Shown: one piece after another, positions 1 to 62,232 of the stretch
Position numbering within the stretch: the first letter of the stretch is position 1
Layout of the letters: every line of letters begins with the position of its first letter
Source: a bacterium
GTDB lineage: Bacteria; Elusimicrobiota; Elusimicrobia; UBA1565; UBA9628
Direction of reading: 5' to 3'
Assembly: GCA_021799485.1 (NCBI GenBank)
Contig: JAJZAK010000008.1
Span: 5,569 to 69,568, forward strand
Length of the DNA stretch: 64,000 nt
Translations under genes and position numbers: made by a program
Notes under the pieces: model-generated
Databases searched by the model: none
What the model saw: only the letters and a program-made list of their open reading frames with translations
Told to the model about the DNA's origin: nothing

Positions 1-303
1 GTGATCGCGGGATGCGGTTGGAACGCGCCGGCGCCCGTGTGCTCGAAGCCCGCGGGGAACACGGCACAGGGGCTCTGCGACATGGCGGGAAACGTCTGGG
101 AATGGCTGGCGGATTGGTTCCACGATTCCTACAAGGGAGCTCCTCGCGACGGCGGCGCCTGGATCGAACCGGAGGGCTCCGCCCGGGTGTTCCGCGGCGG
201 CTCGTGGAATTCCGGCGCCGACGCGGCCCGAGCGGCGAACCGCTCAAGCTTTGATCCGGGATACCATGAAGGCAACCTCGGATTCCGGGTGGCGCGCTCG
301 TGA
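1..303 (+). CDS. C-terminal fragment of a formylglycine-generating-enzyme (FGE/sulfatase-modifying factor) domain protein. The 5' end lies outside the window
   Basis: Motifs GNVWEW, RVFRGGSW and GFRVAR are typical of the FGE-sulfatase domain. The ORF runs from the window edge. Confidence 0.55.
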   Translation: MIAGCGWNAPAPVCSKPAGNTAQGLCDMAGNVWEWLADWFHDSYKGAPRDGGAWIEPEGSARVFRGGSWNSGADAARAANRSSFDPGYHEGNLGFRVARS

Positions 304-1562: not shown

Positions 1563-2461
1563 ACGCGGCCGTCAAAAGAGCGCGCTCCCTCCTCTTGCTT
1601 GGGGCCGCGGCGTTTTCTGGCTGCGCGGCGTGGAACGCGCACGGCGTGGCGGTCCGTCCGCCAAGGAAGCTGCGCGTCGCCATCCTGCCCATCACCCAGG
1701 ACTTCAAGTTGTCGAAACTCTCCAGCATCGAGACGATCCCCAAGGGTCTCGATCCGAGCACGACGTCCCAAGAGGAGCAAAAAAAGATGGCGGAGAAGGC
1801 CATGGCCGCCGATCTGATCTGGCTTCGCCGCAGCCTTGGCGAAAGATTTTCCCGCACCTACGCTTACGAGGTGGTCCCGGACTCGGAAGCGCTGACGGCT
1901 CTCCAACGGGAAGGCCTCTCGCCGGAAAGCGCTCTGTGGGAACTGAAGCCCGCGAAGATGAAAAGCCTGGCTCAAAGGATGAAGGCGGACGTGATCCTGA
2001 AAAGTCGGCTTGACGGCTACGGCAAGCTCAAGTCTCTTTGGCTGGCCGGCGTGATGACCGCGGATTACGCGGAGAACGGCGTGACGGGCTTCGCGGTAGC
2101 CGCGGCCTCAGGGAACCCCTGGGCCGGAATTGGAACAGGCGTTCTTGAGACGGTGTTGGACACCGTTAAATGGATAGGCGCCTTGTGGTTCACGAATCGT
2201 CTTTTCGTTCCCGTGATCCTCAAGGGAGAGCTCGTGAGCGGCGCCGACGGCCGCGGCTTGGCGTCCAACATGGAGACGGAGATGAGTTTCGAGATTTTCG
2301 GCCACGATAAGGCGTTCGACAAATATCCCTTGGAGCAGAGAAAGCTCAAACAGGTCCGCCTGAAAGCCGTCGCGGAGAAGGCCATCGACGACATGGCCGT
2401 CTATTTCGACGGCCAAGCCCTGAAGAACGAGGGCGGTTTTGAAGAGCCTCCCCGCTCATGA
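1559..2461 (+). CDS. hypothetical lipoprotein
   Basis: ATG at 1559 precedes a signal peptide with a lipobox-like LLLGAAAFSGC. Coding-like composition. Confidence 0.45.
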   Translation: MNAAVKRARSLLLLGAAAFSGCAAWNAHGVAVRPPRKLRVAILPITQDFKLSKLSSIETIPKGLDPSTTSQEEQKKMAEKAMAADLIWLRRSLGERFSRTYAYEVVPDSEALTALQREGLSPESALWELKPAKMKSLAQRMKADVILKSRLDGYGKLKSLWLAGVMTADYAENGVTGFAVAAASGNPWAGIGTGVLETVLDTVKWIGALWFTNRLFVPVILKGELVSGADGRGLASNMETEMSFEIFGHDKAFDKYPLEQRKLKQVRLKAVAEKAIDDMAVYFDGQALKNEGGFEEPPRS

Positions 2462-3483
2462 CGATTTTCAGGAATTTTTTCGCGGCAGGCCTTGTTCCCA
2501 CCGCGCTGACGGCCATGGCCATCTCAGGCTGCGCCGGCTTGCCCATGGGAACGCCGGTCCCCTTGGATGGGATCCGCGGCCAAGCGATCGGCTTCGACGA
2601 CTTGGGCATCGACGCATTCCTTGGCAAGATTCTTATACCATGCGGGCGCACCGGCGCCGTCTATTTATTGGACCCCAAGAGCGGCGGAGGCTATCCGCTT
2701 CAGGCCTTTCCATCCGTCTCCGGCGGCGAGCATGGGCACGACGCGGGCGTGACTTCCGCGGATTCCGGCTTGGGACTCGTCTTCGCGTCCGACCGAGACA
2801 CCCGGTCGCTTGAGGCCCTTGACCCCCGCAGCGGGCGGGTCAAGGCCGCTGTCGCTTTAAAAGGAAAACCCGACTACGTCCGTTATGTCGGCCCGACCCA
2901 TGAAATCTGGGTCACGGAACCGACGTTGCAACAAATCGAGATCTTCTCCATCGAGCGCATGGGAAAAGCCATAAGCCTCATGCGTTCGGGCGTTGTCCGA
3001 GTCCCCGGAGGGCCCGAGTCTTTGGTCGTTGACTCCAAGAGAGGGACCGCCTTCACGAATTCATGGAAGGGATCGAGTTTCGAGATTTCCTTAAGCGGCC
3101 GCGGAATCAGTGCCCGCTGGAGGAACGGCTGCGCGGGATCGCGGGGACTCGCGTTGGATGAGGCCGACGGCTTCCTCTTCGTCGGCTGTGAAGAGGGCAA
3201 GGCGTCCGCCCTGGATGCCTTGCACGGCGGCAAGCCGCTTTCAAGCATGGACTCGGGCCGGGGAGTCGACATCATCGCCTACGACCCCGGCTTGCGCCAT
3301 CTCTACGTGCCGGGCGCCGAAGACGCCACGCTGACGGTCGCGTCCGTGGGCCGTCGGGGAAAGCTGACTCCTCTGCGGATGTTCCAGACGGCGCCGGGAG
3401 CCCATTGCGTCGTCGCCAACGGCCGCCGGTTCTGGGTCTGCGACCCGCGACGCGGCCGACTCCTTCGCTTCGACGATCACTGA
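2458..3483 (+). CDS. hypothetical lipoprotein, probable beta-propeller repeat protein
   Basis: Signal peptide with Cys (AISGCAG). Repeated Gly/Asp-rich strand-like segments. 4-bp overlap with the upstream gene. Confidence 0.45.
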   Translation: MTIFRNFFAAGLVPTALTAMAISGCAGLPMGTPVPLDGIRGQAIGFDDLGIDAFLGKILIPCGRTGAVYLLDPKSGGGYPLQAFPSVSGGEHGHDAGVTSADSGLGLVFASDRDTRSLEALDPRSGRVKAAVALKGKPDYVRYVGPTHEIWVTEPTLQQIEIFSIERMGKAISLMRSGVVRVPGGPESLVVDSKRGTAFTNSWKGSSFEISLSGRGISARWRNGCAGSRGLALDEADGFLFVGCEEGKASALDALHGGKPLSSMDSGRGVDIIAYDPGLRHLYVPGAEDATLTVASVGRRGKLTPLRMFQTAPGAHCVVANGRRFWVCDPRRGRLLRFDDH

Positions 3484-3541
3484 AGCTTCCTCATAAAGTT
3501 TCCGCTGAACTCCATAGGCGGGTGTCCAAGTCGCGGCTGAC

Positions 3542-48529: not shown

Positions 48530-48613
48530 TGGGCAGGGCGGGAATCGAACCCGCACGGCCTTGCGGCCGAGGGATTTTAAGTCCCTTGCGTCTGCCAGTT
48601 CCGCCACCTGCCC
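48530..48613 (-). tRNA. tRNA-Leu (anticodon UAA), type II with a long variable arm
   Basis: Reverse complement GGGCAGGTGGCGGAACTGGCAGACGCAAGGGACTTAAAATCCCTCGGCCGCAAGGCCGTGCGGGTTCGATTCCCGCCCTGCCCA folds with a 7-bp acceptor stem, U8, a CTTAAAA anticodon loop, a long variable arm and a GTTCGATTC T-loop. Confidence 0.8.
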
Positions 48614-48702: not shown

Positions 48703-48784
48703 CATGCGTGTAAAGGATTTTACCCTTTTTTACACGCATGGGCCTGGATGCGTGTCAGCGGGGGGCGAGTAGTCCCTTGCGTCT
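48703..48784. repeat. 12-bp inverted repeat (CATGCGTGTAAA...TTTACACGCATG) plus a GGCGAGTAGTCCCTTGCGTC repeat copy next to the tRNA
   Basis: Perfect 12-bp arms at 48703-48714 and 48729-48740. A 19-20-nt element shared with 59204-59223 includes a 12-14-nt match to the tRNA-Leu D/anticodon-arm sequence. Confidence 0.45.
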
Positions 48785-48840: not shown

Positions 48841-49134
48841 CTATCGTTGTAATTTGGGATCGTTGGGTAATCGCCCATGAGTTTCAAGGTGTGCGAGCCA
48901 TTGGTAGTAGCTCTCAGCCATTATGATTGCGTCCTCTAAGTGCACGCCATGTCCGCTTTTATCGGCCGCACGCATGAGGAACTCGATTCGCATCTTGGCC
49001 AACTCGATGGCTTTGTTGACCAAGAGTTCGCGCCTTCGTGCCTTCCGGTCAAAATACTGTCCCACCAGGGCGACTATTCCCGAGACGATTGCGCCGGTCA
49101 AGGAGGCCGTCAGGATCGTTTGGATCACAGTCAT
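48841..49134 (-). CDS. hypothetical small membrane-anchored protein
   Basis: MTVIQTILTASLTGAIVSGIVALV TM helix followed by a charged helix. Lower-GC codon usage. Confidence 0.3.
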   Translation of the reverse strand: MTVIQTILTASLTGAIVSGIVALVGQYFDRKARRRELLVNKAIELAKMRIEFLMRAADKSGHGVHLEDAIIMAESYYQWLAHLETHGRLPNDPKLQR

Positions 49135-49145
49135 TATGCGCCTTC

Positions 49146-50054
49146 CTATGTCGGCTCGGAGGATGGCTCTGGGGGTGCGATAGCCGAAGGGATATCTTGC
49201 TTGCTGAGGAAGGCCAGGAACTGCTGGCACATGGATAAGCTGGCGAGTGCCTCGGAGCGCGTGGCGGGATGGCCCGAATGAGGTCCTATGGAAGCGAACC
49301 CCTTCAGTGCGTCATAGAGTTTCTTCGTGTTGTCGCGTCGGAGCGATTGATCCTTGTCGCCATCCAAGGTTTTGATATATCCCCTGAATGGCTCTCCTAG
49401 GCCCTCAACGGCCTTTCTGGCCTCCATGAGGGTGCCGGGATAGTCGCCACCCAGGAAGCGACGCTTGGCGTCGTTGATATGGGCCCAGGAGGAGGCGAAT
49501 ATCTTCCTGTTGACGTCGTCTTTCGGGAGGACAACCTCAATTGGCAATATCTCAGCGTAGTTCCATCGACCCAGGACCTCTATCCACTCAGCTTGCGAAA
49601 CTTGGAAGTCGCTTCTACCATCTCGAACGAGATCGGCCTGCAACCAGAAGATGGATTGGACCTCGCTCTTCTCCTTGGCCACTTCCGCACACATGAATTG
49701 GAGACCAGCGGAGAATCCTACTCCACCACCATCCCGATACTTCTCGATTTCATGCACGGTTTCCCAGTCGAGGGATAGGACCAATTGGTCCTGCCACTTG
49801 TTGTGTGGATGGAACTCCATGGGGTAGGGAGGGGATTGCAGGCAAAGGCGGGAGAGCGGTCCCAGGTAGCGATCTCCTTGCGAAGTTCGTAATAACATTG
49901 TGCCCTCGATCCCCAAGACGGCGATTACGAAGGGATGCGTGCTCGTGGCGGTAACCCGGAAGACGATAGTCGGCCTGGCGGCATTGGGGAGGCCGTATAC
50001 GCCGGCCACTTCGACCTCAAATCGCGAATTGAGCCTGCTCTTATATGTTGCCAC
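49146..50054 (-). CDS. hypothetical protein (302 aa) in the lower-GC patch
   Basis: Long ORF with atypical composition for this genome. No motifs recognised. Confidence 0.4.
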   Translation of the reverse strand: MATYKSRLNSRFEVEVAGVYGLPNAARPTIVFRVTATSTHPFVIAVLGIEGTMLLRTSQGDRYLGPLSRLCLQSPPYPMEFHPHNKWQDQLVLSLDWETVHEIEKYRDGGGVGFSAGLQFMCAEVAKEKSEVQSIFWLQADLVRDGRSDFQVSQAEWIEVLGRWNYAEILPIEVVLPKDDVNRKIFASSWAHINDAKRRFLGGDYPGTLMEARKAVEGLGEPFRGYIKTLDGDKDQSLRRDNTKKLYDALKGFASIGPHSGHPATRSEALASLSMCQQFLAFLSKQDIPSAIAPPEPSSEPT

Positions 50055-50063
50055 CCCGATCCT

Positions 50064-50140
50064 CGTTTGGCGATTCTAGTAAATCATCCCCAGATGACGT
50101 GTCCGCGCAAGGAGAAAAGTCCTTTACGTCCTCAACGCGG
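50064..50140. repeat. about 80-nt repeated element, copy 1, with a palindromic core GATTCTAGTAAATC, upstream of the 302-aa minus-strand gene
   Basis: About 75% identical to 59165-59240. Lies 10-85 nt upstream of the start codon at 50054. Confidence 0.5.
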
Positions 50141-50851
50141 GACTGGGCGCCGCATCTGGATCGGGAGCCCATAGGCGTCCCGTTCCTCGCCCGCGGCCTT
50201 GATCGTGGCCTCCGGCCGCCATGTCGCGGCCGTGACGCAGGCCACGACCGCGTCCAATACGTCGTCCTCCTGCAACTTGTTGCGGGGCCACGAGCCCGAC
50301 GCCTTGGTCACGGCCACGTCTAGGCCCGGCACAAAGCATCTCAGAAGCGCCCGCCGGGCCCGCAGGCCATCTTTCTTCTTCTTGCCGATCATCAGGGGAA
50401 CGCCGCCATTCAGGGCCGCAAAGCAGGTCTCGGGATGCACCTCCCAGATGCGGCCGGCGCTCCCAGGTTGGGTCATCAGATAACGGTCTACCTCGTCAAT
50501 CTTCGGCATGATCGCGAATGCCTGTCGCGACAGCCCCTTCCCGCAGAGTTCCCAGTGTAGGCGGTTGGCCTTCTCGTAGGTCTTGGCGGCAAGAACGGGC
50601 CTGGGAGGCGCCGGGAACACGCACATCCAGCGCGCGCCCAGGGCTTTGCGGGCGAGTAGGTCAACCGCCCTACCGTCACGCTCGCCAAGGCCGATCGGGA
50701 TGTCCACGGCGACGTGGGCGGCATCCTTGGCGGCGTCGATCGCGTCCGCGAACGTCGAGTGAACGCCGACCTTGACCGTCAACGCGCGCGCCGAGCCCGT
50801 ACCCATGGCTAGGCACCATCCGCCCCGGCAACCGTCGATTCCGGCGACCAT
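50132..50851 (-). CDS. DUF429 family protein (predicted RNase H-like nuclease fold)
   Basis: N-terminal MVAGIDGCRGGW matches the DUF429 signature (GIDGC.GGW). Confidence 0.55.
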   Translation of the reverse strand: MVAGIDGCRGGWCLAMGTGSARALTVKVGVHSTFADAIDAAKDAAHVAVDIPIGLGERDGRAVDLLARKALGARWMCVFPAPPRPVLAAKTYEKANRLHWELCGKGLSRQAFAIMPKIDEVDRYLMTQPGSAGRIWEVHPETCFAALNGGVPLMIGKKKKDGLRARRALLRCFVPGLDVAVTKASGSWPRNKLQEDDVLDAVVACVTAATWRPEATIKAAGEERDAYGLPIQMRRPVPR

Positions 50852-50893: not shown

Positions 50894-53800
50894 TCAGCTA
50901 CGAGCTAAAAAATCAGCGGTTGTATTCCGAACGAGCTTTTCGTGGTAGGCTTGATTGGAGTAGGTCTTCAAGCAATCATAACAGGCCATTTCGCAGGTGC
51001 ACTGAGAGCAGATTTCTGCGCTTTGCGTCACGACCGACGCCCAAGCGTCCATCGCTTGCTTTACAAACCCCGCGCCGCCGGGCGTAAGGTCAAAGAAGAT
51101 TAGTTCGGGACGTGGTCGTGATATTTTCTGACCGAGCCATCGCCAGGACACTCCGATGTCTTGAGACTCGACGTCCAATACCCTGCAAATGCCTCGCTGA
51201 AGCGCATATGCGAGGGACTCGACAGACGGAGGCGGGGCTATTGGACGAGCTATCAAACAATAGCTTTGGAACACATGCCCATATGATATTTGCCGCCATA
51301 GCGGGTGGCCGCAACTGGCAGTGCCAGAGAACACACGAAGCCGTTTGTGTTTGCGTTCGGTTCGCGAGCTAATCTCCGGCTCGCTGGATCCACATGTCGG
51401 ACAGAGACTAAACCCACGCGCTTGCGGTCCGAGGTTGTATCTAAAGAGACTGCCCTCTTCTTTCATAGCCAATCGGAACAGGCCGTTGTCTTTGAACTCA
51501 GGATCCTCTACTGCGTCAATAAACTGCGTGACAGTTTGGCGCTGCCGCAACAAAGTTCCACGTCGAAATCGTTCGGCTCCGCCACCCTTGGAATCCAGAC
51601 GGACACTAAAGGCGGCCGGCTGGATATATGGCTTGATATCCTGTATGGTGATCGCGCGCCCGCACACACTGCACGAGACCTTGAGCGCGTCCTGCGTTGG
51701 AGCCGTGCGTATTTGCTCACAACTCCTGCATCGAGAGAACCAGCGACGGACCGGGACATCCGAATTGCCCATAATGTAAAGTCCTGCGCTCGTGAAAACC
51801 TTCTTATGCGCAATAACCTGTGCCCCTGGCGCAAATTCAGCAATTGCCAACCCACGTTCACGACTCAGTTCTACGTCGGAGTCTCTCGACCATCGAGTCT
51901 TTCCTGTTTCAAGACTAACAACGTCGAGCGGGAATGCGTATCGTGGCAAGAAACCTTCTCTCGCCATGATGTCAATAACGTTGCTTCCAAGCAACTCTTT
52001 GATAGAACGCTCGATGTCGGCAAGATGTTCGCCAAGCGCAACAAGTCGACCTCGTTCGGCGACTAACGCGGCAAGCTCTTCACCAAGCCGATTTATAACA
52101 TCACGGTATGATGATATTGCTCCTTCGCGCGCCTCGACGAATCCGCCGGCCGACGTAGCCACGGCTTTCCCAACTTCGGTATGAAATATCTGGACTTCAT
52201 TTTGCGCTGCCAGCCAAGCAATGAAGTCGAGAAATGTATCTGTGGGGCGTGCTTGAATCCACCCCGTTGGAATATTGCGGCGGGAATCAATAGGAAGGAA
52301 AACCTCGAGACGGATTTTTTGTTTGATTGTATCGCCGAGCACGCGCTCATCGCGGATTTTGATCCGCAAGAAATCCGCAAATGCGACTGCATTGAAATGA
52401 CGTTGCGCGATAATGCGATTGTCTACGAACACGGATGGGGTGCGGACTTCGCCTGACATCAGGAGTTGTGGCTTACTCCAAGCGTCAGAGTCATACTTCG
52501 TTCTCCGACACATGGTGACGCATACGGCGTTTTTATCCTTGCCTCTTCCCGCGCGACCAACTCGCTGGATATAACTCGCGCTGCTCGGGGGGGCATTTCG
52601 CAGGAGGACCTTTTGGAGGTCTCCAATATTGATGCCCATCTCGAAGGTGGTTGTACTACTTAGCAGGTTTAGTCCCTGCGCCCGGAAATCATCCTCGATC
52701 GTTTTAGCAAGGTCCTTGTTTATTTGTGCCGTGTGTTCCTCTGACCGTAGAGTGCTGAATGTCACTGAGCGATCGCCTGCTACCCACCTAGCGATAAGGT
52801 TGGCGTCGTCGGGATTAAACGTCGCTGCCCCTAATCTGCCAAGACAGCCCTTCTTCGGGCAGCAGCCTCGCGCGGAAAACGTGGTCACGATACCACAGCG
52901 ATCACATACGAATCGCGCCGTAGCCTTCCTCACAAAAATGCGTTCATGGTCGAGTTTCCATTCACCGCGGGACGGAATCAAAAGGACTTGCGTGATTAAG
53001 AATTGCCAGATCGCTTCCGCGATAGCGAGGATGTCCGTCGGCGATTTGCCAGTGAGCCGTCGAATGTAATCCGTGAAGTAGTTGTCGCGGTAAGAGCCGT
53101 CCACATTCTTTTGCGGCGTCCAGCCTACCGCGTTCCGACGACCTTGTCGTTCATGTAGCAGGGCGATATCAGCTGTAATTCGCCCAAAGGCTGGCGCATC
53201 AGGCAAGACGCGTCCCCTTGGCAGAGTGAATATCTTTCTCTGGCGAACGTACGCCAGAAGTGATTGAAGAGCCGCCGCCGAGTCTTCATGTGTTAAATGG
53301 CTGGGCTGAAGTAACGCATGGAACTTGTCACGTTCCGCCGCGGTCGTCTCGTACTCGACGGTCAGTAAACCGAAGTCTTCGGCTGATTCTCGCGCGGAGT
53401 CGGGGACGCCGAAGTATGCAAAAACCTCCGCTACCCACAAGTCCCGCTCGCGTTTTTTATCAAGCTGCTCCTCCGGCTTTCGCGAGGCCGGTAGAAATAG
53501 ATTCGGATCAAACGTGCTGGAAGCAGGGTCTGTGGATTCCGCGAGCCGCTCTCCCAGCGATATAAAGTCAATATGCTCGCCATCTTTAATGAGCGATACT
53601 ATTTTGCGGCCGAGATCATAACCGAAAGTCTCCTCCTCAAGGAGGGACGGAAACGCTGCGGCGCGCTGGCGGTTATCGGTAAAGCAAAGGAGCTTCCGGG
53701 CACGCCTCTCCGCCGATGAGGACGAAATATTGAAATGCGCCAGCGGAATCGCCATCGCGAGGCCAACTTCATCATCTGATTCTTGGAATCGTCTTACTGG

Positions 53801-55774
53801 CTCGAGGCCCGAAGCGTTGCGGCCGCCACAATTCGGACAGCAAGGCAAAAGCTCCTTATCACCACCATAAAGTTTTGTTTGGTCCTTGGACCGCTTGGAG
53901 TGCGGACATTGCCTGTGGAACACTAGCAACTCCCGAATCAGCGGCGGCGCACACTGACAATCGTCTCCGGCGTCGTTGTACTTCCGCTTCCCGCATATGG
54001 TGCACCACGGCACCCTTTCCGGCCTGTCAATGAGGTCTGCATCCTCCTCTTCATCCGTGGCGGCCTGTGACGGGAAAGGAAGCTCGTCCTGGATGCTGAA
54101 GTAGGTCCAGAACGAGTCGGCGGCCCAGCCGAGTTCAGTCGAGAAGGCATCAAAGCATGGCTTCGGCTCATCAACACCAGCCTCTTGATTGCGAGCACGG
54201 CGCGGCCCGAGGTCCTGCAGCGCGCCATAAAGATAACCACACTTTCTACACGAAACGAGTTCGACGAGCTGTGACCGCATCCCCACGGCATGGCAGTCAG
54301 GACAGTAACCTATTGGAGCGTCGGGCAGATGGTTCCGAGTAACGAACAGGCTTGGTTTACCCTCTCGTCGCGCAGGGCAGCGCGGCGATAAGCAGATGTG
54401 GAGCCCATCTTCGGCCTTCACAAAGTAGTGGAGGCGCGTTGGCAGTAAATCCTCAGTCGCTCCAAGTTCCTTTGCGGAAGCCACAACTTCGAGTAGCGCG
54501 TTAAGTGCTTCTTCGGCCTTTGGACTTTTTGGCCACAATTCGGCCGCAACGGACGCCAAGGGTTTCGGTACCGTCAGGATATCTTTCCTGAGTTTGTGAA
54601 GGTTTTCATCCCGAAGAAGTCCATCGAGGAGGTTCGTCCCTGGCGGCAAGCCAAGACTCTGCCCGGGGTCCTTCTTTGCTCGAACGTCTGTGGCGGCGCG
54701 GATGTACTGATCGGGGGACGGGCGAATAACCGGATTGGTGATCACCGGTGTGGCGATAGTCCCGTATATTGGGCTGCGCTGGTCAAATCCTGCGCCGAAC
54801 AACGCTGATGCAAATTCTCTAACCTTTTGAATACTCCGTGGATCATCCTTCTTGCCCAAAGTTGCGGACGTAGCGATACAACACACCTTATTCGCGTTCA
54901 GCCGATCCCTGAGGCGCCTTAGGAGAAATCCGATCTCCGTTGCCTGAACGCCGCGGTAGGCGTGAACTTCATCTAGCACAATGAACTTCAATCGTGCGTT
55001 TTCAAAGATGGGCGCATCAACGGGCCGCTCGAGGAGGTACTCCAACATCGAAAAGTTCGTTATTAGGATATGCGGCGGCGCAAGACGAATCTGGTCTCGG
55101 TGATTGAGACGATTTGAAATCTCTTCGCGGTCGCGGCGAAGTTGCTCGCGGAGTTGTCGCGATACTTCCCGTTGAAGCTCCTGTTGGCCGTGCATTTCCA
55201 CTTCGAGCCTTCTGCGAAGTGCATCTTCAAGCCGATTCTGATAATCCCCCTGCGTGCCTGGTGTCTGCCCTGAAAAGCGCGCGAATCGGATCGACGGATA
55301 CTCTCGAAGAATTTCTTCCCATTCGCCGAGTTGATCGTTTACCAGCGCGTTAAGGGGGTAGATAATGATCGCACGAAGCCCCGGCGTGCAGTCCCGGATG
55401 AGATCATCGAGAATCGGGATCTGATAGCAGAGCGTTTTACCACTACTCGTTCCAGTGGCTACTACTACGTTGCCGCCACTCAAGACAGCTTCCAGGGCTT
55501 CGGTTTGATGCTTATAGAGCGTGCGGTTGGACAATCGTCGTTCAACGGTTTGTATCGTCTTCTTATGAAGGTCAAGGGACGTTAAGGGCGCCCCAGGCGC
55601 ATACGCTTGGGAGCGTTCCATGTAGGGGCCGCGGACGAGCGCCTCGACATTGAGTTTCTCTTCCCAAACGCTTTTCGCGTGGCTGAACGCAGGATGAAAG
55701 CGATAGCGCGCCTTGAGCAGGTCAAGGTAAGGGACAAACACATCTGATCTGAAACGGGAAGTTAGGGATTCCAT
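50894..55774 (-). CDS. large SF2 DEAD/DEAH-box helicase with multiple zinc ribbons and a DUF1998/MZB-like C-terminus (DruE-like)
   Basis: YKHQTEALEAVLSGGNVVVATGTSSGKT (motifs I/Ia), FIVLDEVH (DEVH), TTTFEMGINIGDL and YIQRVGRAGR (motifs V/VI). At least 6 CxxC pairs. Terminal CSQCTCEMACYDC cluster. Confidence 0.7.
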   Translation of the reverse strand: MESLTSRFRSDVFVPYLDLLKARYRFHPAFSHAKSVWEEKLNVEALVRGPYMERSQAYAPGAPLTSLDLHKKTIQTVERRLSNRTLYKHQTEALEAVLSGGNVVVATGTSSGKTLCYQIPILDDLIRDCTPGLRAIIIYPLNALVNDQLGEWEEILREYPSIRFARFSGQTPGTQGDYQNRLEDALRRRLEVEMHGQQELQREVSRQLREQLRRDREEISNRLNHRDQIRLAPPHILITNFSMLEYLLERPVDAPIFENARLKFIVLDEVHAYRGVQATEIGFLLRRLRDRLNANKVCCIATSATLGKKDDPRSIQKVREFASALFGAGFDQRSPIYGTIATPVITNPVIRPSPDQYIRAATDVRAKKDPGQSLGLPPGTNLLDGLLRDENLHKLRKDILTVPKPLASVAAELWPKSPKAEEALNALLEVVASAKELGATEDLLPTRLHYFVKAEDGLHICLSPRCPARREGKPSLFVTRNHLPDAPIGYCPDCHAVGMRSQLVELVSCRKCGYLYGALQDLGPRRARNQEAGVDEPKPCFDAFSTELGWAADSFWTYFSIQDELPFPSQAATDEEEDADLIDRPERVPWCTICGKRKYNDAGDDCQCAPPLIRELLVFHRQCPHSKRSKDQTKLYGGDKELLPCCPNCGGRNASGLEPVRRFQESDDEVGLAMAIPLAHFNISSSSAERRARKLLCFTDNRQRAAAFPSLLEEETFGYDLGRKIVSLIKDGEHIDFISLGERLAESTDPASSTFDPNLFLPASRKPEEQLDKKRERDLWVAEVFAYFGVPDSARESAEDFGLLTVEYETTAAERDKFHALLQPSHLTHEDSAAALQSLLAYVRQRKIFTLPRGRVLPDAPAFGRITADIALLHERQGRRNAVGWTPQKNVDGSYRDNYFTDYIRRLTGKSPTDILAIAEAIWQFLITQVLLIPSRGEWKLDHERIFVRKATARFVCDRCGIVTTFSARGCCPKKGCLGRLGAATFNPDDANLIARWVAGDRSVTFSTLRSEEHTAQINKDLAKTIEDDFRAQGLNLLSSTTTFEMGINIGDLQKVLLRNAPPSSASYIQRVGRAGRGKDKNAVCVTMCRRTKYDSDAWSKPQLLMSGEVRTPSVFVDNRIIAQRHFNAVAFADFLRIKIRDERVLGDTIKQKIRLEVFLPIDSRRNIPTGWIQARPTDTFLDFIAWLAAQNEVQIFHTEVGKAVATSAGGFVEAREGAISSYRDVINRLGEELAALVAERGRLVALGEHLADIERSIKELLGSNVIDIMAREGFLPRYAFPLDVVSLETGKTRWSRDSDVELSRERGLAIAEFAPGAQVIAHKKVFTSAGLYIMGNSDVPVRRWFSRCRSCEQIRTAPTQDALKVSCSVCGRAITIQDIKPYIQPAAFSVRLDSKGGGAERFRRGTLLRQRQTVTQFIDAVEDPEFKDNGLFRLAMKEEGSLFRYNLGPQARGFSLCPTCGSSEPEISSRTERKHKRLRVFSGTASCGHPLWRQISYGHVFQSYCLIARPIAPPPSVESLAYALQRGICRVLDVESQDIGVSWRWLGQKISRPRPELIFFDLTPGGAGFVKQAMDAWASVVTQSAEICSQCTCEMACYDCLKTYSNQAYHEKLVRNTTADFLARS

Positions 55775-57885
55775 AGGTCATTCACCACTCGCGCACCGCG
55801 CGACTTCAGGTATCGATAGATTTCTCCGTTCGCTTCCGCGGGCCACTCAATTTGGACGAAGGGGGGCTCTCCCCGTTGGTCAACGATGGAAACTGGCGGC
55901 AATTTGTCCTTCATGAGGTGGTACATCTTCCGATAGAGGCCCCACAAGATCGATGGGTCACCACAAAACCTCATCGTTAGCCAAGGTGAATGAGCTTTCA
56001 ATATGGCGCGCGATTCAGCGATCGCCCAGCATCGTCCGCGTTGAATAATCAGGCGAACATCCAAGTACTTTTTAAGCAGGTAATACGAAACCTTCGTATC
56101 CGGAGCTATCACATGACTCGCAAGCGCAAGCTCATCCCACTTGAGTCCTTCGCGTGATTGAGCGAGAAGGAACCAAAGCAAGTAGTTCCCGGGGAGGGCT
56201 CGCCAGCACCGCTCAATCTCAATCCTTGGGTTCTCGAACCAAAGATCATATGCGAATCTGATTCCGAGCCGTGTCGCTTCAATCGTTAAAATTCGGTGAC
56301 CTTGGAGATCCATCGGCTCGAAGAACTTTCCCAACTCCCTGAGATTTGTGGCCTTCCCGGTGCGCACCTTCTCTAGAAGCGGACGTTTTGACCAGCTCCA
56401 AAAGAACAATTCGTAGTCCTCGAGGGCTTCTCCCCGTCTTTCCCACGAGCCGCCAGCTCTATGGCCGTCGATTTGGACAATGAAGTTTTCCTGGACGGTC
56501 TGCTCGCTGTTCGCGAAGTAGCCAAGCGGGACGAGTACGCACACCAAAGGAAATTTCTCAATGTTCAGCGAGTCGCCTTCCCGCCGGAATCGGGCAGAGT
56601 GCCAACCCTGTCCGACAAATAGTCGCGCCTGAACGCGCTTCCGAGTTCGGAACCGCAGCTCAGTAGTTTTAGCCCCATCGGCTATCGAGGCAGCCGCGAA
56701 CCTATCCTTGGGCCAAAGCCGCGTGAGATAGCAAGAAGTTCCGTCCGGCAGTTCATATCGATCATTCGCCGGGCAGTCCGCCTCTTCAAATCCCCGTCTG
56801 ACGAGCTGCACGGGCTTCGTGGCGATGAGCACGTAGCTCCGGAGCGGCAACTCCTCACGATTGGTATTTATCCAATAGCCGCCACGTTCCATATCGAAGA
56901 GGCCCCAGGGGTTGAGCCCTGGGAGCCGCACAGCTTGTGAGTCTGATTGAGCTGTTATGGTCGCTGGTATCGCGGGTGCGAACGCGGCCGAATCGATCGC
57001 TATTTCTGCAGGTGTCGCATTTGCCGCGAGAGGCCGCCCGGCAATGTTCCATGTCGCTGGGAGACGTTGGCGGTCCAAGCCGGGCAGGTGCAGCACTAGA
57101 GAACAGTTCTGGTCCTTCCAGACCAGGCGGGGCCGATCTCGGAACAGCGATTCAGGGTCATTCGGTTTAAGAAACTCGGCCGTCTCCGGCACTTCATCGA
57201 AGTACTCGACTCGGAGCAAACACGCCTGCTTCAATTGATCAACCGTCAGGGCCGGATCGCTTGCTAGACAACGCCTCGCATCGAGCATTTCACGGATAAT
57301 TTCAGTGCCGCCCTGTCTGTTGGAGAGCAGGAATGATCGCAGCCGCCGACGGCTTCCCGATAACCGTGTTACGGTGGTCTCCCATTCGTCGCCGGACAAC
57401 GACTGCCAATCTTCACGTGCGGCAGCCCACTCACAGAGATCGAGGAAGCCGTCCCATAGGGAAATTGGTATCCCAATATGGTGGACTGCTGAACCGACGT
57501 AGGACATTCGGGCATCGTTGCCAAGCAGCTTAAGGCCCCATCGCTGGACGGCGGAGCTATAGACTCTGTTAAGTCGATTGTACGCTGCAAGAGGAAGAGT
57601 CTTCTGGGGACATCCGACAGCTTCGGCAAACCGGGGCCAAAACGTGGCGTCTTCGTACTCGAAGAATGCATGTCCCCCATACAAGACCACCAAGCACGCT
57701 GGGAACGTGTCGGGCTTCGTGCGCCATAGGTCCCATGCTTGGCGAGTAACGCCGATAAATCTGTCCCATTCATTACGGTTCGGAATCAGTGGTAGAAGAT
57801 ATCCCGAGCGTTCTCGGACCGTGGCTTCCTGAGAATCGAGAAATTTACGGAAGGTGGACTCAAATGCGATGAGCTGCGTTGTCAT
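55762..57885 (-). CDS. 707-aa protein of unknown function, translationally coupled to the helicase (DruH-like candidate)
   Basis: 13-nt overlap with the downstream helicase gene. No recognised domains. Confidence 0.45.
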   Translation of the reverse strand: MTTQLIAFESTFRKFLDSQEATVRERSGYLLPLIPNRNEWDRFIGVTRQAWDLWRTKPDTFPACLVVLYGGHAFFEYEDATFWPRFAEAVGCPQKTLPLAAYNRLNRVYSSAVQRWGLKLLGNDARMSYVGSAVHHIGIPISLWDGFLDLCEWAAAREDWQSLSGDEWETTVTRLSGSRRRLRSFLLSNRQGGTEIIREMLDARRCLASDPALTVDQLKQACLLRVEYFDEVPETAEFLKPNDPESLFRDRPRLVWKDQNCSLVLHLPGLDRQRLPATWNIAGRPLAANATPAEIAIDSAAFAPAIPATITAQSDSQAVRLPGLNPWGLFDMERGGYWINTNREELPLRSYVLIATKPVQLVRRGFEEADCPANDRYELPDGTSCYLTRLWPKDRFAAASIADGAKTTELRFRTRKRVQARLFVGQGWHSARFRREGDSLNIEKFPLVCVLVPLGYFANSEQTVQENFIVQIDGHRAGGSWERRGEALEDYELFFWSWSKRPLLEKVRTGKATNLRELGKFFEPMDLQGHRILTIEATRLGIRFAYDLWFENPRIEIERCWRALPGNYLLWFLLAQSREGLKWDELALASHVIAPDTKVSYYLLKKYLDVRLIIQRGRCWAIAESRAILKAHSPWLTMRFCGDPSILWGLYRKMYHLMKDKLPPVSIVDQRGEPPFVQIEWPAEANGEIYRYLKSRGARVVNDLWNP

Positions 57886-58157
57886 ATCACCAACTTGATG
57901 GATGGGCGTGAACGTCAGTCCCCTTTGGGCCCATGGATGAGAGCCTCGATGGGAACCACCACGGCAGGTATCCGATCATTCCGTCAGACAGCATTTCGAT
58001 ACGCCGCACATTTTACCGCTTCTATGTGTGAATCGGGTGTCGAAATGTCAGCCTGCCGGCAGGCGTGTTGCCGCGATGCAAGTGGCCCTTCACGGCTTGC
58101 TACCCGAATTTTATGCGGCTCAAGGGTGACGTGGCGCCCCTTCTGAGTAATAGTCGG

Positions 58158-59132
58158 TCAGCGATCAAGGTACCAAAGGGTTTTAATGTCCTCTGAGTCC
58201 ACGCCTTTGGGCGCTGCCGCGGGGGGTTCCAATCGAACCATGCGTGCCGAGTCGCAAAGTTTACCGCCCAGTAATTCCTTCACGGGCTCGGAGAAAATCA
58301 AAGGAGTCTCCGGACTGACTTCTAGTAGACGCGAAGCGAGATTGACGGGGTATCCAATGTAATCGAGACGGAAACGATTGGGATTCTTCGGATTATAAAC
58401 GCGCAGCCTACAAACTTCACCGAGTGTGATTCGTGCGCGGAAGCCACCGGGGCGAGGTGATGGCCATTGAAGGATAAGAGATCTCATTCTCTTGATCAGC
58501 TCAAGTGTGTCGCGCAGAAATATTTCAGCGACCTCGGGAGCTGTCGCGTCGTCGGAAAGTTCCTTTACGAACATGACGCCATCGCCAAGCAATTTAGCGA
58601 AATATGATTTATCCAGACGCAATGTGGAAAACTCTGCATAGATATCCGTCATTGCGTTGCGTAAGGCAGTCTGGGTGAGCGTGGGGCGCTTCAGCCACGT
58701 AGAGAAAGAGATAATATCTCCGAACGCCACGATAATTTTTTTACGGGCCGCTTTGACTCTGGGTTTCGGAACGGCAAAAGAAGATAGCTCAATTGGCTCG
58801 TTTGGCCCTCCAACTTCTTCGGTGCCGTCCCAGCGCACGCCGCAACCCGGACAATCCAGCTCTAGTTTTCTGGCAACTTCAAGGACCTCATCAGAACGAA
58901 GGTGTTGTTTGCGCTTGATCTTTCCCCAACTCTCGAGCGCGCTTTGAATGATGTATTGCAAGGGGTGGGGAGTCGTGAGCCAAACGGCTTCTCCGTCTTC
59001 CCAGGGCATGCATGTGGCGCAACATTGCGCTTCCTCGAAGATTTTCTCGCGCAGTGCGTCAGCATCGCGCTCGATTAATTCGTTTTCGGACCTAGAGAGG
59101 GCCATTAATTCCTTTGCTCCGTCACCATTCAC
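58158..59132 (-). CDS. class III nucleotidyl cyclase with a Cys-rich N-terminal domain
   Basis: IIVAFGDIISFST (metal-binding Asp of the F.D..GFT motif), LLGDGVMFV (second Asp) and GYPVNLASRLLE (VN.ASRL motif). N-terminal CCATC...CPGCG. Confidence 0.7.
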   Translation of the reverse strand: MNGDGAKELMALSRSENELIERDADALREKIFEEAQCCATCMPWEDGEAVWLTTPHPLQYIIQSALESWGKIKRKQHLRSDEVLEVARKLELDCPGCGVRWDGTEEVGGPNEPIELSSFAVPKPRVKAARKKIIVAFGDIISFSTWLKRPTLTQTALRNAMTDIYAEFSTLRLDKSYFAKLLGDGVMFVKELSDDATAPEVAEIFLRDTLELIKRMRSLILQWPSPRPGGFRARITLGEVCRLRVYNPKNPNRFRLDYIGYPVNLASRLLEVSPETPLIFSEPVKELLGGKLCDSARMVRLEPPAAAPKGVDSEDIKTLWYLDR

Positions 59133-59164
59133 GACCTTATTGGTCGCGCCTCGCGTCGTTTGAT

Positions 59165-59240
59165 GATTCTAGTAAATCATCGCCAGAGGGCGTCTTGGCG
59201 CGAGGCGAGTAGTCCCTTGCGTGCAATGCGTCCGCCTCCT
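59165..59240. repeat. about 80-nt repeated element, copy 2, with a perfect palindrome GATGATTCTAGTAAATCATC, upstream of the cyclase gene
   Basis: 7-bp inverted arms with a 6-bp spacer at 59171-59190, followed by GGCGAGTAGTCCCTTGCGT, which is also found at 48764-48784. Confidence 0.5.
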
Positions 59241-59356: not shown

Positions 59357-60508
59357 ATGATGCGCGTTGACATCAAGCCCGAGCTTCTAAACTGGGCCTG
59401 TCAGCGGGCGGGACTCACCGCCGAAGCGATCAGCCATCGCTTCCCGCAGTACATGGCCTGGGTGAGTAAGGAAACCCAGCCAACCTTTAGGCAGATTGAG
59501 CAGTTCGCCAAGGCGACCTACACCCCGGTTGGTTTTCTATTCCTTCCCGCGCCTCCCGTCGAGCAAGTTCCGATCCCTGATTTTCGCACGGTTGCAAACA
59601 AGAAGGTTCATCGACCCAGCCCAGACCTGCTGGATACGATCTATATCTGCCAGCAACGACAAGAGTGGTACCGCGATTATGCCCGATTGTTGGGTGAGCC
59701 GTCGCAGTCGTTCGTAGGATCGGCACGCATCGGTGCCAGCGTTGTCCAAACTGCCAAGGCTATCCGGGATAAACTCGGCCTCAACATCCAAGAGCGTCAA
59801 CAGATTGCGACGTTCGTCGATGCGCTGCGCCGCCTAATCGAGCAGGCCGATTCGATGGGGATCATGGTCATGTGCAGTGGCGTTGTTTCGAGTAACAACA
59901 GGCGTCGCTTGAACCCGGAGGAGTTCCGGGGCTTTGCCATGAGCGATCCCTTGGCGCCACTCATTTTCATAAATGGTTCCGACACCAAGTCGGCACAGAT
60001 GTTCACGCTTGCCCATGAGTTGGCGCACATCTGGGCCGGGAAGTCTGGGGTTGACGACGCCCAGGCATCCTCCATCTCCGGCAACGAGGTCGAGAGGTGG
60101 TGCAACCAGGTAGCGGCCGAACTGCTCGTGCCGATGGCTTCTTTCCGGCCCGAATACGACAAGCACGCGGACCTCGACACCGAACTTCCGCGCCTTTCGC
60201 GGCGTTTTAAGGTGAGCACTCTCGTGATCCTCCGCCGGATGTTAGATGCGGGAGGGATTGCGCAGAAACAATTTTGGGATGCCTACCACGTTGAACTCGA
60301 ACGCTTATCTTCGCTACCTAAGCCCGATGGTGGCGGCAACTTTTACCTGACGACCGCAACCCGCGTCAGTAAACGGTTCGCCCGCGCAATCATCACGAAC
60401 ACCTTGGAGGGCCAGACTTTGCATCGCGATGCCTTCCGCATGTTGGGCTTCTCCAAGCTGGAGACCTTTCGGGAACTCGGGCGCGGACTTGGGGTGATCG
60501 TGAAGTGA
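59357..60508 (+). CDS. XRE-type HTH fused to an ImmA/IrrE-family zinc metallopeptidase (COG2856-like)
   Basis: N-terminal HTH region. HEXXH motif LAHELAHIW with a downstream Glu. Confidence 0.7.
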   Translation: MMRVDIKPELLNWACQRAGLTAEAISHRFPQYMAWVSKETQPTFRQIEQFAKATYTPVGFLFLPAPPVEQVPIPDFRTVANKKVHRPSPDLLDTIYICQQRQEWYRDYARLLGEPSQSFVGSARIGASVVQTAKAIRDKLGLNIQERQQIATFVDALRRLIEQADSMGIMVMCSGVVSSNNRRRLNPEEFRGFAMSDPLAPLIFINGSDTKSAQMFTLAHELAHIWAGKSGVDDAQASSISGNEVERWCNQVAAELLVPMASFRPEYDKHADLDTELPRLSRRFKVSTLVILRRMLDAGGIAQKQFWDAYHVELERLSSLPKPDGGGNFYLTTATRVSKRFARAIITNTLEGQTLHRDAFRMLGFSKLETFRELGRGLGVIVK

Positions 60509-61029
60509 CCTCGGCCGCGACCTATCTGCTCGATGCAAACGTTTTTATGCAGGCCAAGAACCTGCATTACGGACTCGATTTTTGCCCGGCTTTCTGGGAA
60601 TGGTTGATTAAGAACAACGCAGCTGGCCGCGTATTCAGTATCGAGAAAGTCAACGACGAGATTCAGGCTGGCAATGACGAATTATCGACCTGGGCGGCTC
60701 AACGTGGAGCCGGATTCTTCTTGCCGCCGGACCAGTCCTTGTTGTCGGTCTTGGCTCAAGTCAGTACCTGGGCAACGAACCATACTTGGGGGAACCAGCA
60801 ACGGTACTCCCAAGCCGCGATCAGCGCATTTCTTCAGGTAGCGGACTATTATATTGTTGCCCAGGCCCTCGCACATAAGCATGTCTTGGTTACGCACGAG
60901 GTTGCTGCTGCGACGATCAATAAAATCAAAATTCCCAACGCCTGCATCGCGCTCGGCATAAAGTGCATGACGCCCTATGAGATGCTTAGGCGAGAACGAG
61001 CGCGCTTCGTCCTTGGGACACATCCATAG
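60505..61029 (+). CDS. DUF4411-like (PIN-like) protein, 4-bp overlap with the ImmA-like gene
   Basis: N-terminal YLLDANVFMQAK acidic PIN-like motif. 174 aa. ATGA overlap. Confidence 0.5.
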   Translation: MTSAATYLLDANVFMQAKNLHYGLDFCPAFWEWLIKNNAAGRVFSIEKVNDEIQAGNDELSTWAAQRGAGFFLPPDQSLLSVLAQVSTWATNHTWGNQQRYSQAAISAFLQVADYYIVAQALAHKHVLVTHEVAAATINKIKIPNACIALGIKCMTPYEMLRRERARFVLGTHP

Positions 61030-62232
61030 TCAGGCCGCCATCTCCGCCACCCGCAGCGCGATGGGCCTCTCGACGGGGACAACGGTCCCGTTGACCGTGC
61101 CGTCCGACTTGCCGATCAGGCGCTCGAGGTGCTTGCCGTAGAGCACCGCGCTCGCTTCCTTGTGCCGCGGCGACAAGTGCCCGTAAACTTTTTCGACCAT
61201 CGACGGGCTCGTATGTCCGACGAGTGCCGCGATCGTCGCGAAGTCCATGCCACTCATCACCATGATGCTTATCGCCGTATGACGCAGGTCGTGCAACTTG
61301 AAGTTCGCGAGGCCCGCGCGCGCGACGACGTTCTTAAACGCCGTCCTCACGTCTCTGGAGGGGCCTGTCCCTTTGGGATTCGGGAAAAGCCAGGGGCATC
61401 CCATCTCCTTGGCGCGGTCGGCGGCCGCGTCGAGGATCTCGCAGGCGAGACGCGGAATCGGGATCCAATCAGGCGAGCCTTCCTTCGTTTTCTCAAAGAA
61501 CACGTATCCGTTCCTGCGGTCGTAGTTCTCCACGCGTAAACTCAAGACCTCGGTCCGCCGACGACCGATGAAAAGGAGAAGGCGTAGTGCGAGGCGTGAG
61601 CCCTCGAGCTTGAGCGTCTTGAGCGCGTCGAGGAAGTGGTGGAGCTCGTCGTCGATGAGGTGGCGTTTGCGTGTGCGTGCCTTTTCGCTCCTGCGTTTGA
61701 AGCGCGGGGCAGGGTGGAGTGGCAGGATGCCCCACTCGACGGCGCACGCGAGCATGCAGCGGATAACTGAAATTTCACGGTTCACGGAAGAACTCTGGAC
61801 CGTCCGCGCTGTGTTCTTCCGCCACTCCGTGGCGCGCTTCGAGTTGGCCAGCTCGCCGCGGAAGGGAGAGAGAATCTTCTCGCTTTCGCGCATCCCTCGG
61901 TAGCGGGAAAGCAAGCCGTTCGTGATCTGCGTCAGGCGCACGTTGCCTGACCACGCCCGGAACCGCTTCAGGTATCGCTCGACGTGACCGCGATAGGCGA
62001 GCGGATTGACATGCTCCCTCATGAATCTAGGCGTGAACTCGTCCAGGGTTGGGGCCTTGGTCGCGATGCCCAACTTGCCCAAGTTAAGCTCGGTCCGAAT
62101 TTGCGCCGCGAGAGCATCGGCATGCCGCCTCGTGCCAGCCTTCTTCTTGATTTTGACCTTTCGTGCGGGGTCCCAAACGTTCGCGTACCATGTCGTTGTT
62201 CCCGGCCTCTTCCAGATATCCGATTTTGCCAT
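61030..62232 (-). CDS. int: tyrosine-type phage integrase
   Basis: C-terminal catalytic region LHDLRHTAISIMV...GHTSPSMVEKVYGHL (R-H-R-Y family). Confidence 0.85.
   Translation of the reverse strand: MAKSDIWKRPGTTTWYANVWDPARKVKIKKKAGTRRHADALAAQIRTELNLGKLGIATKAPTLDEFTPRFMREHVNPLAYRGHVERYLKRFRAWSGNVRLTQITNGLLSRYRGMRESEKILSPFRGELANSKRATEWRKNTARTVQSSSVNREISVIRCMLACAVEWGILPLHPAPRFKRRSEKARTRKRHLIDDELHHFLDALKTLKLEGSRLALRLLLFIGRRRTEVLSLRVENYDRRNGYVFFEKTKEGSPDWIPIPRLACEILDAAADRAKEMGCPWLFPNPKGTGPSRDVRTAFKNVVARAGLANFKLHDLRHTAISIMVMSGMDFATIAALVGHTSPSMVEKVYGHLSPRHKEASAVLYGKHLERLIGKSDGTVNGTVVPVERPIALRVAEMAA

Follow-up and report, generated by a model that had tools for sequence, protein, structure and literature searches.

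Known cyclase-based phage defences, Pycsar and Pucsar, are defined by a cyclase together with an adjacent effector gated by a cyclic nucleoside monophosphate (cNMP). CapRel represents single-protein sensor-enzyme defence, in which a RelA/SpoT toxSAS enzyme carries a C-terminal sensor domain. Here we analysed a 64,000-nucleotide stretch of an Elusimicrobiota contig (JAJZAK010000008.1), referred to as the window. An open reading frame (ORF) on its minus strand, at 58158..59132, encodes a protein that belongs, by sequence and predicted fold, to the class III nucleotidyl cyclases and that carries a small cysteine-rich N-terminal domain, which we refer to as Cys4. The gene lies in a defence island beside a Druantia III-like gene pair. 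Comparison of its residues and neighbourhoods indicates that it does not form a canonical Pycsar system and that it does not belong to that pair as a conserved subunit. We favour, at roughly even chances, an autonomous and horizontally carried class III cyclase that is sensor-gated and most likely an adenylyl cyclase. A role of the protein in defence or conflict appears evenly balanced as well.

The cyclase and its N-terminal Cys4 domain

The ORF is intact. Its longest frame has 324 residues starting from a GTG at 59132, and the stop codon is at 58158-58160. The true start is likely the ATG at 59103-59105, which gives 315 residues. This ATG is preferred because a Shine-Dalgarno-like AAGGA precedes it, the database copy P0001 has 315 residues, and the full-length homologues all start with MAL or MSL. 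Residue numbers refer to the 324-residue frame unless the 315-residue numbering is stated. The motifs quoted in the original prediction are all found in the ORF, namely QCCATCMPW (CCATC being residues 37–41), DCPGCGVRW (CPGCG being residues 94–98), LLGDGVMF, PVNLASRLL, and FGDIISFST, the last of which is one residue off the pattern F.D..SFT given there.

Class III membership is assigned because fold, motifs, and family-level sequence tests all agree. In a search of the family profile against the Protein Data Bank (PDB), solved class III cyclases were matched with E values of 2.6e-9 to 1e-5, the best being CyaB of Pseudomonas aeruginosa (3r5g, 2.6e-9) and mycobacterial Cya (5o5k, 5e-8). Soluble guanylyl cyclases and photoactivated adenylyl cyclases come next in the ranking. 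The AlphaFold (AF2) model of the cyclase has a predicted local distance difference test score (pLDDT) of 82.6. Its top 50 Foldseek matches in the PDB are all class III adenylyl or guanylyl cyclases, and the best one is again CyaB 3r5g, with a TM-score of 0.79 on the target and a probability of 1.0. PycC, the Pycsar cyclase, is represented by no structure among the PDB profile matches up to E = 10 or among the top 50 fold matches. The PADLOC PycC model matches the window protein with 21.4 bits (E 2.7e-5) over 150 residues, a partial match no better than the generic Pfam one. The Pfam model Guanylate_cyc (PF00211), which the original prediction had named as a check, gave a divided answer. On its own, the window protein stays just below the cut-off of 21.9 bits, with a score of 20.6 bits (E 3.6e-4), while its full-length relatives with the Cys4 domain exceed the cut-off with 27.8–57.2 bits.

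The catalytic domain comprises residues ~130–324 (58161..58745, minus strand), as supported by Pfam, profile, AlphaFold model, and Foldseek. Alignment of 52 relatives locates its key residues. The metal-binding aspartates are D139 (codon 58716-58718), kept in 51 relatives, and D184 (58581-58583), kept in all 52. The transition-state residues N264 (58341-58343) and R268 (58329-58331) are kept in 50 and 46, respectively, and R232 (58437-58439) is a further key residue of the domain. The base-specifying K180 (58593-58595) is invariant, and the second specificity position, D257 (58362-58364), is Asp in 40 relatives, Glu in 11, and Thr in one. With the profile and fold matches and the full catalytic set, the predicted stand-alone class III cyclase is borne out, and the incomplete catalytic residues that would have marked a pseudo-cyclase were not found: D139, D184, N264, and R268 are all present. 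A decayed or catalytically dead protein with a structural role only would fit the sub-threshold Pfam score of the single sequence. Given the intact frame, the confident predicted fold, and the canonical residues conserved across the relatives, we regard such a protein as extremely improbable. Judged from residues and model, an active cyclase is very probable.

In the alignment made with a hidden Markov model (HMM), the Lys and Asp of mycobacterial Cya/Rv1625c-type adenylyl cyclases are the counterparts of K180 and D257. By this alignment, the pair is of the purine/adenine type as in canonical adenylyl cyclases. The default prediction is hence conversion of ATP to cyclic AMP (cAMP), and we lean slightly towards ATP as the substrate. 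The original prediction had left the choice between purine and pyrimidine to these residues and had likened the protein to the cCMP/cUMP synthases of Pycsar; the pair would tend away from the pyrimidine side.

The Cys4 domain is ~110 residues long (58776..59105, minus strand), is supported by cysteine conservation, and is presumed to bind zinc. Only four of its cysteines are conserved, C38, C41, C94, and C97 (codons 59019-59021, 59010-59012, 58851-58853, and 58842-58844). A cysteine-rich N-terminal domain is thus present as had been proposed, except that C37 of the quoted CCATC motif is not a conserved position. In the 315-residue numbering, C29, C85, P86, and C88 are invariant and C32 is nearly so. 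The family signature reads C-x-x-C-M-P-[WFY]-x-x-G-E-x-V-W ... L-x-C-P-x-C-G, and a profile search among 1.84 billion representatives retrieved just 19 proteins. Neither a Pfam family nor a solved structure related to the domain was found. A profile of 18 sequences searched against the PDB and Pfam returned only sub-threshold matches to CPxCG knuckles and zinc ribbons, Foldseek of a separate Cys4 model against the PDB returned nothing significant, and a scan of viral contigs found no Cys4.

The domain occurs in several architectures. It is N-terminal to at least six class III cyclases (P0148, P0170, P0172, P0177, and P0182 among them) and to two unknown domains (P0176 and P0185). It is C-terminal to a TIR_2 domain in P0178 and to a RelA_SpoT enzyme resembling small alarmone synthetases in P0179, which also matches the PADLOC candidate PDC-S33; both of these proteins are on short contigs. 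Free-standing proteins of ~100 residues exist as well. By these searches, Cys4 is an undescribed, very rare, and modular domain. Judged from architecture, the swapping of one small domain among cyclase, TIR, and RelA/SpoT enzymes would fit the pattern of conflict-system input domains. We infer that Cys4 binds zinc and acts as a sensor or input domain.

Relatives and their genomic neighbourhoods

The cyclase family is small, with six clusters retrieved by single-sequence search and 45 by profile search out of 5.8 billion. It is rare, patchy, and mostly found on mobile DNA. Long forms, which possess the Cys4 domain, were found at five loci: the window, P0002 (locus L001), P0003 (L012), P0177 (L070), and P0187 (L072). 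The window form is located beside the Druantia-like pair. At L001, the cyclase is the last gene of an operon (54-3538) that also encodes a LexA-like S24 repressor, a PDC-M30A-like protein of 384 residues, and a DUF5131 protein (PDC-M30B), with Gabija downstream and an integrase alongside. The LexA-like repressor heading this operon suggests that it is under SOS-type control. At L012 (2-1175), the cyclase comes after a DUF5131 gene and is followed by an NsnA/GmrSD-like gene. The DUF5131 (Gp37/Gp68) genes at both loci match PADLOC PDC-M30B/M41B. Hence, three of the five long-form loci adjoin known or candidate defence systems. The other two long forms have no defence neighbours: P0177 is beside cellulose-synthesis genes, and P0187 is beside a PAS protein.

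We inspected these loci for a conserved partner. No gene, the window's included, is common to the neighbourhoods of the five long forms, which makes the cyclase look like a self-standing module. DUF5131/TcmP-like genes were considered as partners since they precede the cyclase at L001 and L012; they are absent from the window and were rejected. Clustering of the ORFs at 14 cyclase loci yielded only phage lysis-cassette genes as recurrent neighbours, none of which is common with the window.

Relatives that consist of the cyclase domain only are of two kinds. Those of ~230 residues, with 34–40% identity, lie in ordinary chromosomal settings, after enolase/CrcB genes (L064-66) or between MFS and LysR genes (L061-62). 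Those of ~200 residues, with intact catalytic residues, are carried by at least seven distinct uncultured phage contigs (L004, L005, L013, L017/L058, L054, L055, and L067). The phage forms directly follow an endolysin gene (Peptidase_M15_3 or GH108) and a small ORF with a coiled coil or transmembrane segment, and most of these loci continue with small membrane ORFs, judged by eye to resemble holins or spanins. PHROGs has no family for these phage forms, for the cyclase, or for p302, a 302-residue protein of the window's island. Searches of cultured phage genomes and plasmids with the cyclase, the phage form P0004, and p302 retrieved no homologue. In a rough neighbour-joining tree, most long forms group beside the chromosomal 230-residue clade, and the phage forms make up separate clades. 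In an alignment of phage forms (A4, with P0005, L053-L055, and L057), several members have extra conserved Cys and His absent from the window protein, specifically an N-terminal C, an 'HNC' motif, and a C-x-x-x-C in the arm region. These positions hint at a different internal metal site in the phage forms.

The neighbourhoods bear on a rival account, in which the cyclase travels with the defence genes as a passenger and serves signalling, either of an ordinary kind or for the benefit of the element; its Cys4 domain would sense zinc or redox state, and the enzyme would tune cAMP-dependent regulation of the host in favour of the island or of a phage. Such a cyclase would agree with the domain-only relatives beside enolase/CrcB, MFS, and LysR genes, with those conserved in phage lysis cassettes, with the two long forms in ordinary-looking contexts, with a Lys/Asp pair as in housekeeping adenylyl cyclases, and with the lack of a linked effector. 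The original prediction had itself counted homologues in housekeeping signalling contexts as evidence against a defence role, and this proved true in part, for the domain-only relatives, while three of the five long forms directly adjoin defence or candidate systems. The signalling account also has to accommodate an extremely rare, patchy, and mostly mobile family whose Cys4 domain is fused elsewhere to a TIR domain and to a RelA/SpoT enzyme matching a PADLOC candidate, a combination typical of conflict systems. Taken together, we consider an ordinary signalling cyclase rather unlikely.

The island, the Druantia-like pair, and the search for a receptor

The island is a low-GC stretch (~48.6–61 kb) between tRNA-Leu(TAA) (48530-48613, minus strand) and a tyrosine integrase gene (61030-62232, minus strand). 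It contains the DruE helicase system and a pair formed by an RmrA-like M78 peptidase and a DUF4411 protein, so the description of this region as a defence island was well founded. Downstream of the cyclase on the same strand are the genes for a 707-residue protein in the position of DruH (55762..57885) and for a DruE/YprA-family helicase of 1626 residues (50894..55774; PADLOC DruE3, 5.4e-166), which overlap by 13 nucleotides (nt). Both are treated here as context of the cyclase and not as its components. The helicase has DEAD, Helicase_C, and MrfA zinc-binding domains, and no PLD nuclease domain was detected in it. Canonical DruH has about 1,100 residues and canonical DruE about 2,000 residues with PLD domains (bioRxiv 10.64898/2026.05.12.722862), and a type III-like Druantia branch mostly without nucleases has been described (PMC12458937). 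The 707-residue protein matches no PADLOC DruH model and no Pfam family, and the profile of its family, which has about 130 members, finds no relative in the PDB.

We fetched 32 other genomic loci with a relative of the 707-residue protein (L018-L049), and three more with a short fragment match only. In 29 of the 32, which come from very different phyla, the gene is adjacent to druE; the remaining three are cut by a contig end or have a fragment of the 707-residue gene only. Gene conservation in the 32 loci does not extend beyond the pair, and DNA similarity to the closest one, L018, spans 57799..50905 only, ending inside the gene for the 707-residue protein. By homology and gene order, the two genes form a compact, self-contained Druantia III-like module. 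None of the 32 loci has a cyclase, by tblastn or by the family HMM on six-frame ORFs, and no cyclase homologue lies next to DruE elsewhere among the loci examined. Because co-occurrence with DruE and its partner was tested and not found, we rejected the cyclase as a conserved Druantia component. As the pair is self-sufficient, it can be studied experimentally without the cyclase.

The sequence upstream of the cyclase is repeated in the island. The cyclase gene and the divergent M78-peptidase gene share an intergenic region that contains, 50 nt upstream of the ATG of the cyclase, a promoter-like element of 67 nt with the palindrome GATGATT-TACTAG-AATCATC (59156..59222, minus strand). A second 67-nt copy, 79% identical (50063..50129, minus strand), fills the space between a DUF429 gene and the gene for p302, directly upstream of the latter. 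A half copy (48750..48782, minus strand) is located between the ORF for a 97-residue protein (p97) and tRNA-Leu, and its 19-mer ACGCAAGGGACTACTCGCC (48764-48782), which corresponds to the first 19 nt of the element, is identical to the cyclase-upstream copy. The left half of the cyclase-upstream copy is common to the tRNA-proximal copy and the right half to the p302 copy; the arms of the palindrome are 7 nt long. None of 100 shuffles reached two matches. A scan for sigma-70 promoters found none. From its sequence and position, the element upstream of the cyclase is a candidate operator or promoter. The repeats, which bracket one block of cyclase, 707, DruE, and DUF429 genes and another of p302 and p97, may have arisen by duplication of a promoter/operator sequence, on which the divergent M78-peptidase protein would possibly act, or alternatively may be recombination scars bracketing cassettes. 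In the spacer of 272 nt between the cyclase stop and the start of the 707-residue gene (57886..58157, minus strand), no intrinsic terminator is predicted, Rfam finds no match, and the fold stability is not unusual (z = -1.85). Read-through from the cyclase into the 707-residue gene is therefore conceivable.

This arrangement is what speaks for an accessory role of the cyclase in the Druantia III-like system, specific to this lineage. The cyclase would be transcribed together with the two genes and might act by lowering ATP or by making cAMP that modulates the DruH-like partner. The three genes share a strand and a similarly low GC (0.52–0.56), nothing in the gap predicts termination, and the repeats bracket cyclase, 707, DruE, and DUF429 as one block. 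ATP has moreover been reported to inhibit the binding of canonical DruH to single-stranded DNA (bioRxiv 10.64898/2026.05.12.722862). Set against this, the cyclase is missing from all 32 other loci and from beside DruE elsewhere, and homology to the closest locus is limited to the two genes. By the available models, the 707-residue protein is also not detectably related to canonical DruH, so that transfer of the ATP effect to it is speculative. We regard an accessory role as improbable, and hold any functional tie between the cyclase and the pair to be equally so.

The original prediction had noted that no obvious cNMP-binding effector is adjacent, and we found the same: a cNMP-binding domain is absent from the eight island proteins scanned, which include the 707-residue protein and p302 and do not include the 97-residue ORF. 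A tblastn search of the window with an approximate Escherichia coli CRP sequence, which is a weak test, revealed similarity in the helix-turn-helix (HTH) region only and no cNMP-binding domain. None of the five long-form loci has an adjacent cNMP-binding effector. The 707-residue protein had been proposed as the receptor; since the pair occurs in 29 genomes without a cyclase, and 19 members of its family have no match to cNMP_binding or any other Pfam family, we rejected it as a dedicated cNMP receptor. In the literature searched, we found no relevant report of adenylyl cyclases acting as stand-alone defences or of class III cyclases encoded by phages.

These results bear on whether the cyclase could be the signal generator of a Pycsar/Pucsar-like pair with an unrecognised neighbour as receptor-effector, either the 707-residue protein or the co-regulated p302 with the membrane protein p97. 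The PADLOC PycC match and the island setting are compatible with such a pair, as are the 67-nt element that p302 and the cyclase have in common and the N-terminal hydrophobic helix of p97, seen by eye; small membrane proteins are frequent as Pycsar-type effectors (bioRxiv 10.64898/2026.08.12.744502). The scans of the eight island proteins and of the 707 family argue against it, and so do the pairs without a cyclase in 29 genomes, the purine-type specificity pair, and the lack of any conserved neighbour at the other long-form loci. Homologues of p302, p97, and the DUF429 protein are absent from every other locus fetched. We regard a hidden Pycsar-like pair as improbable, to the same degree as the Druantia accessory. 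The Pycsar analogy of the original prediction, taken as membership, is not upheld.

The genes for p302, which has no family match, and p97 lie at 48841-50054 (minus strand), and no homologue of this pair was found in the plasmid collection. The DUF429 gene (50132-50851, minus strand), just after druE, has a GC of 0.67 like the host backbone, between neighbours of 0.52–0.58. Its host-like GC and its absence from all other 707/DruE loci indicate that it is probably of different origin. On the other side of the cyclase and divergent from it, the gene for the M78-peptidase protein (383 residues) overlaps that for the DUF4411 protein (174 residues) at 59357-61029 (plus strand). The former matches PADLOC RmrA (1.9e-13) and capP (5.7e-15), and the two look like a RosmerTA-like toxin-antitoxin defence pair. 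An N-terminal HTH in the M78-peptidase protein was seen by eye only and has no Pfam match. The integrase gene is 12 kb away from tRNA-Leu, methyltransferase genes lie beyond it, and an MmeI-type enzyme comes next on a longer contig (L006); for these reasons the island looks composite.

Proposed mechanism and comparison with known systems

In the favoured reading of an autonomous, sensor-gated cyclase, the enzyme would act as a head-to-tail homodimer. The Cys4 module would bind zinc and, as a sensory or regulatory input domain, keep the cyclase off until a trigger arrives, which may be a phage component or a stress or redox signal. Once activated, the cyclase would convert ATP to 3',5'-cAMP, or another nucleoside triphosphate (NTP) to its cNMP. 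As no receptor gene is linked, either the product would target in trans a cNMP-binding protein whose gene lies at another site in the host, or the enzyme would be its own effector, by draining NTPs or by overloading the cell with cNMP. The latter option follows the logic of CapRel and similar single-protein sensor-enzyme defences. Transcription would probably start from the palindrome-bearing element common to the p302 operon, with the RmrA/CapP-like M78-peptidase protein, encoded in the divergent direction, as a possible regulator.

Several points weigh against this reading. No receptor was found, which leaves the signalling half of the model empty. The defence role is guilt by association from five contexts, two of them ordinary-looking, and the domain-only relatives beside enolase/CrcB, MFS, and LysR genes tell in the same direction. 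For Cys4, both zinc binding and the sensor function are drawn from the sequence pattern alone, and the model of the domain is of moderate quality, with a pLDDT of 69.6. Reading the substrate off a Lys/Asp pair follows no more than a rule of thumb; pockets of PycC are heterogeneous, some having Lys or Arg at the same position (PMC11224242). A local link of the cyclase with the 707/DruE genes is conceivable as well, because the genes are co-oriented with no predicted terminator between them and the sole promoter-like repeat is upstream of the cyclase.

If the favoured reading is true, an orphan sensor-fused cyclase beside varied defence systems would imply that unlinked receptors can read cNMP signals or that a cyclase can itself be an effector. 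Both the very rare Cys4 domain, as a candidate for a new module that senses infection, and the relatives in phage lysis cassettes offer concrete leads that can be tested. A bolder extension would regard Cys4 proteins as a new family of single-protein sensor-enzyme immune modules, with one sensor swapped among cyclase, TIR, and RelA/SpoT enzymes. The cyclase would then serve either as an effector, through a rapid ATP-to-cAMP drain or cNMP overload, or as an alarm for unlinked receptors, and the lysis-cassette cyclases of phages would exert cyclic-nucleotide control of lysis or counter-defence. We consider this extension unlikely as a whole.

Among described systems, bacterial class III adenylyl cyclases such as CyaB (3r5g) and those of the mycobacterial Cya/Rv1625c type (5o5k and 4p2f) are closest. 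They are the best profile and fold matches, and they share the fold, the two metal-binding aspartates, the Asn/Arg pair, and the Lys/Asp pair with the window protein at about 20–23% identity, so that a homodimeric mechanism is expected here too. These enzymes have membrane, HAMP, MASE, or other known sensor domains and housekeeping contexts, whereas the window protein has an undescribed Cys4 domain and is carried by a mobile defence island. Pycsar (PycC with PycTM or PycTIR) and the cGMP-based Pucsar likewise have a class III cyclase fold in a defence island, and infection-triggered cNMP synthesis would be expected in both cases. One PycC clade carries a zinc-binding element needed for defence (PMC11224242). 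That zinc site is a C-terminal ribbon, in contrast to the separate N-terminal domain seen here. Pycsar and Pucsar also have an adjacent cNMP-gated effector, while the present family has none at any locus, a purine-type pair, and a weak, partial PycC match. Because the defining adjacent effector was looked for and not found, we do not assign the cyclase to either system.

The upstream region is reminiscent of the CapH/CapP and ImmR/ImmA repressor-peptidase switches, in that it combines an M78-peptidase neighbour, which matches capP and RmrA, with a palindrome in the divergent intergenic region. Different from such switches, the M78 neighbour may simply be the antitoxin-like half of the RosmerTA-like pair with DUF4411. 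The window protein and CapRel are similar in design, with a small regulatory domain joined to a nucleotide-using enzyme, and in P0179 the Cys4 domain follows a RelA/SpoT enzyme at the C-terminus. A CapRel-type chain (7ztb) matched just the RelA/SpoT catalytic region of P0179, and no homology between Cys4 and the CapRel sensor was detected in that search or in the fold and profile searches of the PDB with Cys4. The CapRel enzyme is of the RelA/SpoT type and the present one is a cyclase of unproven toxicity, so the likeness is one of design and carries no claim of membership. Compared with all of these systems, what is new is the orphan cyclase joined to an undescribed Cys4 domain that is common to TIR and RelA/SpoT enzymes, while the enzyme class itself is familiar.

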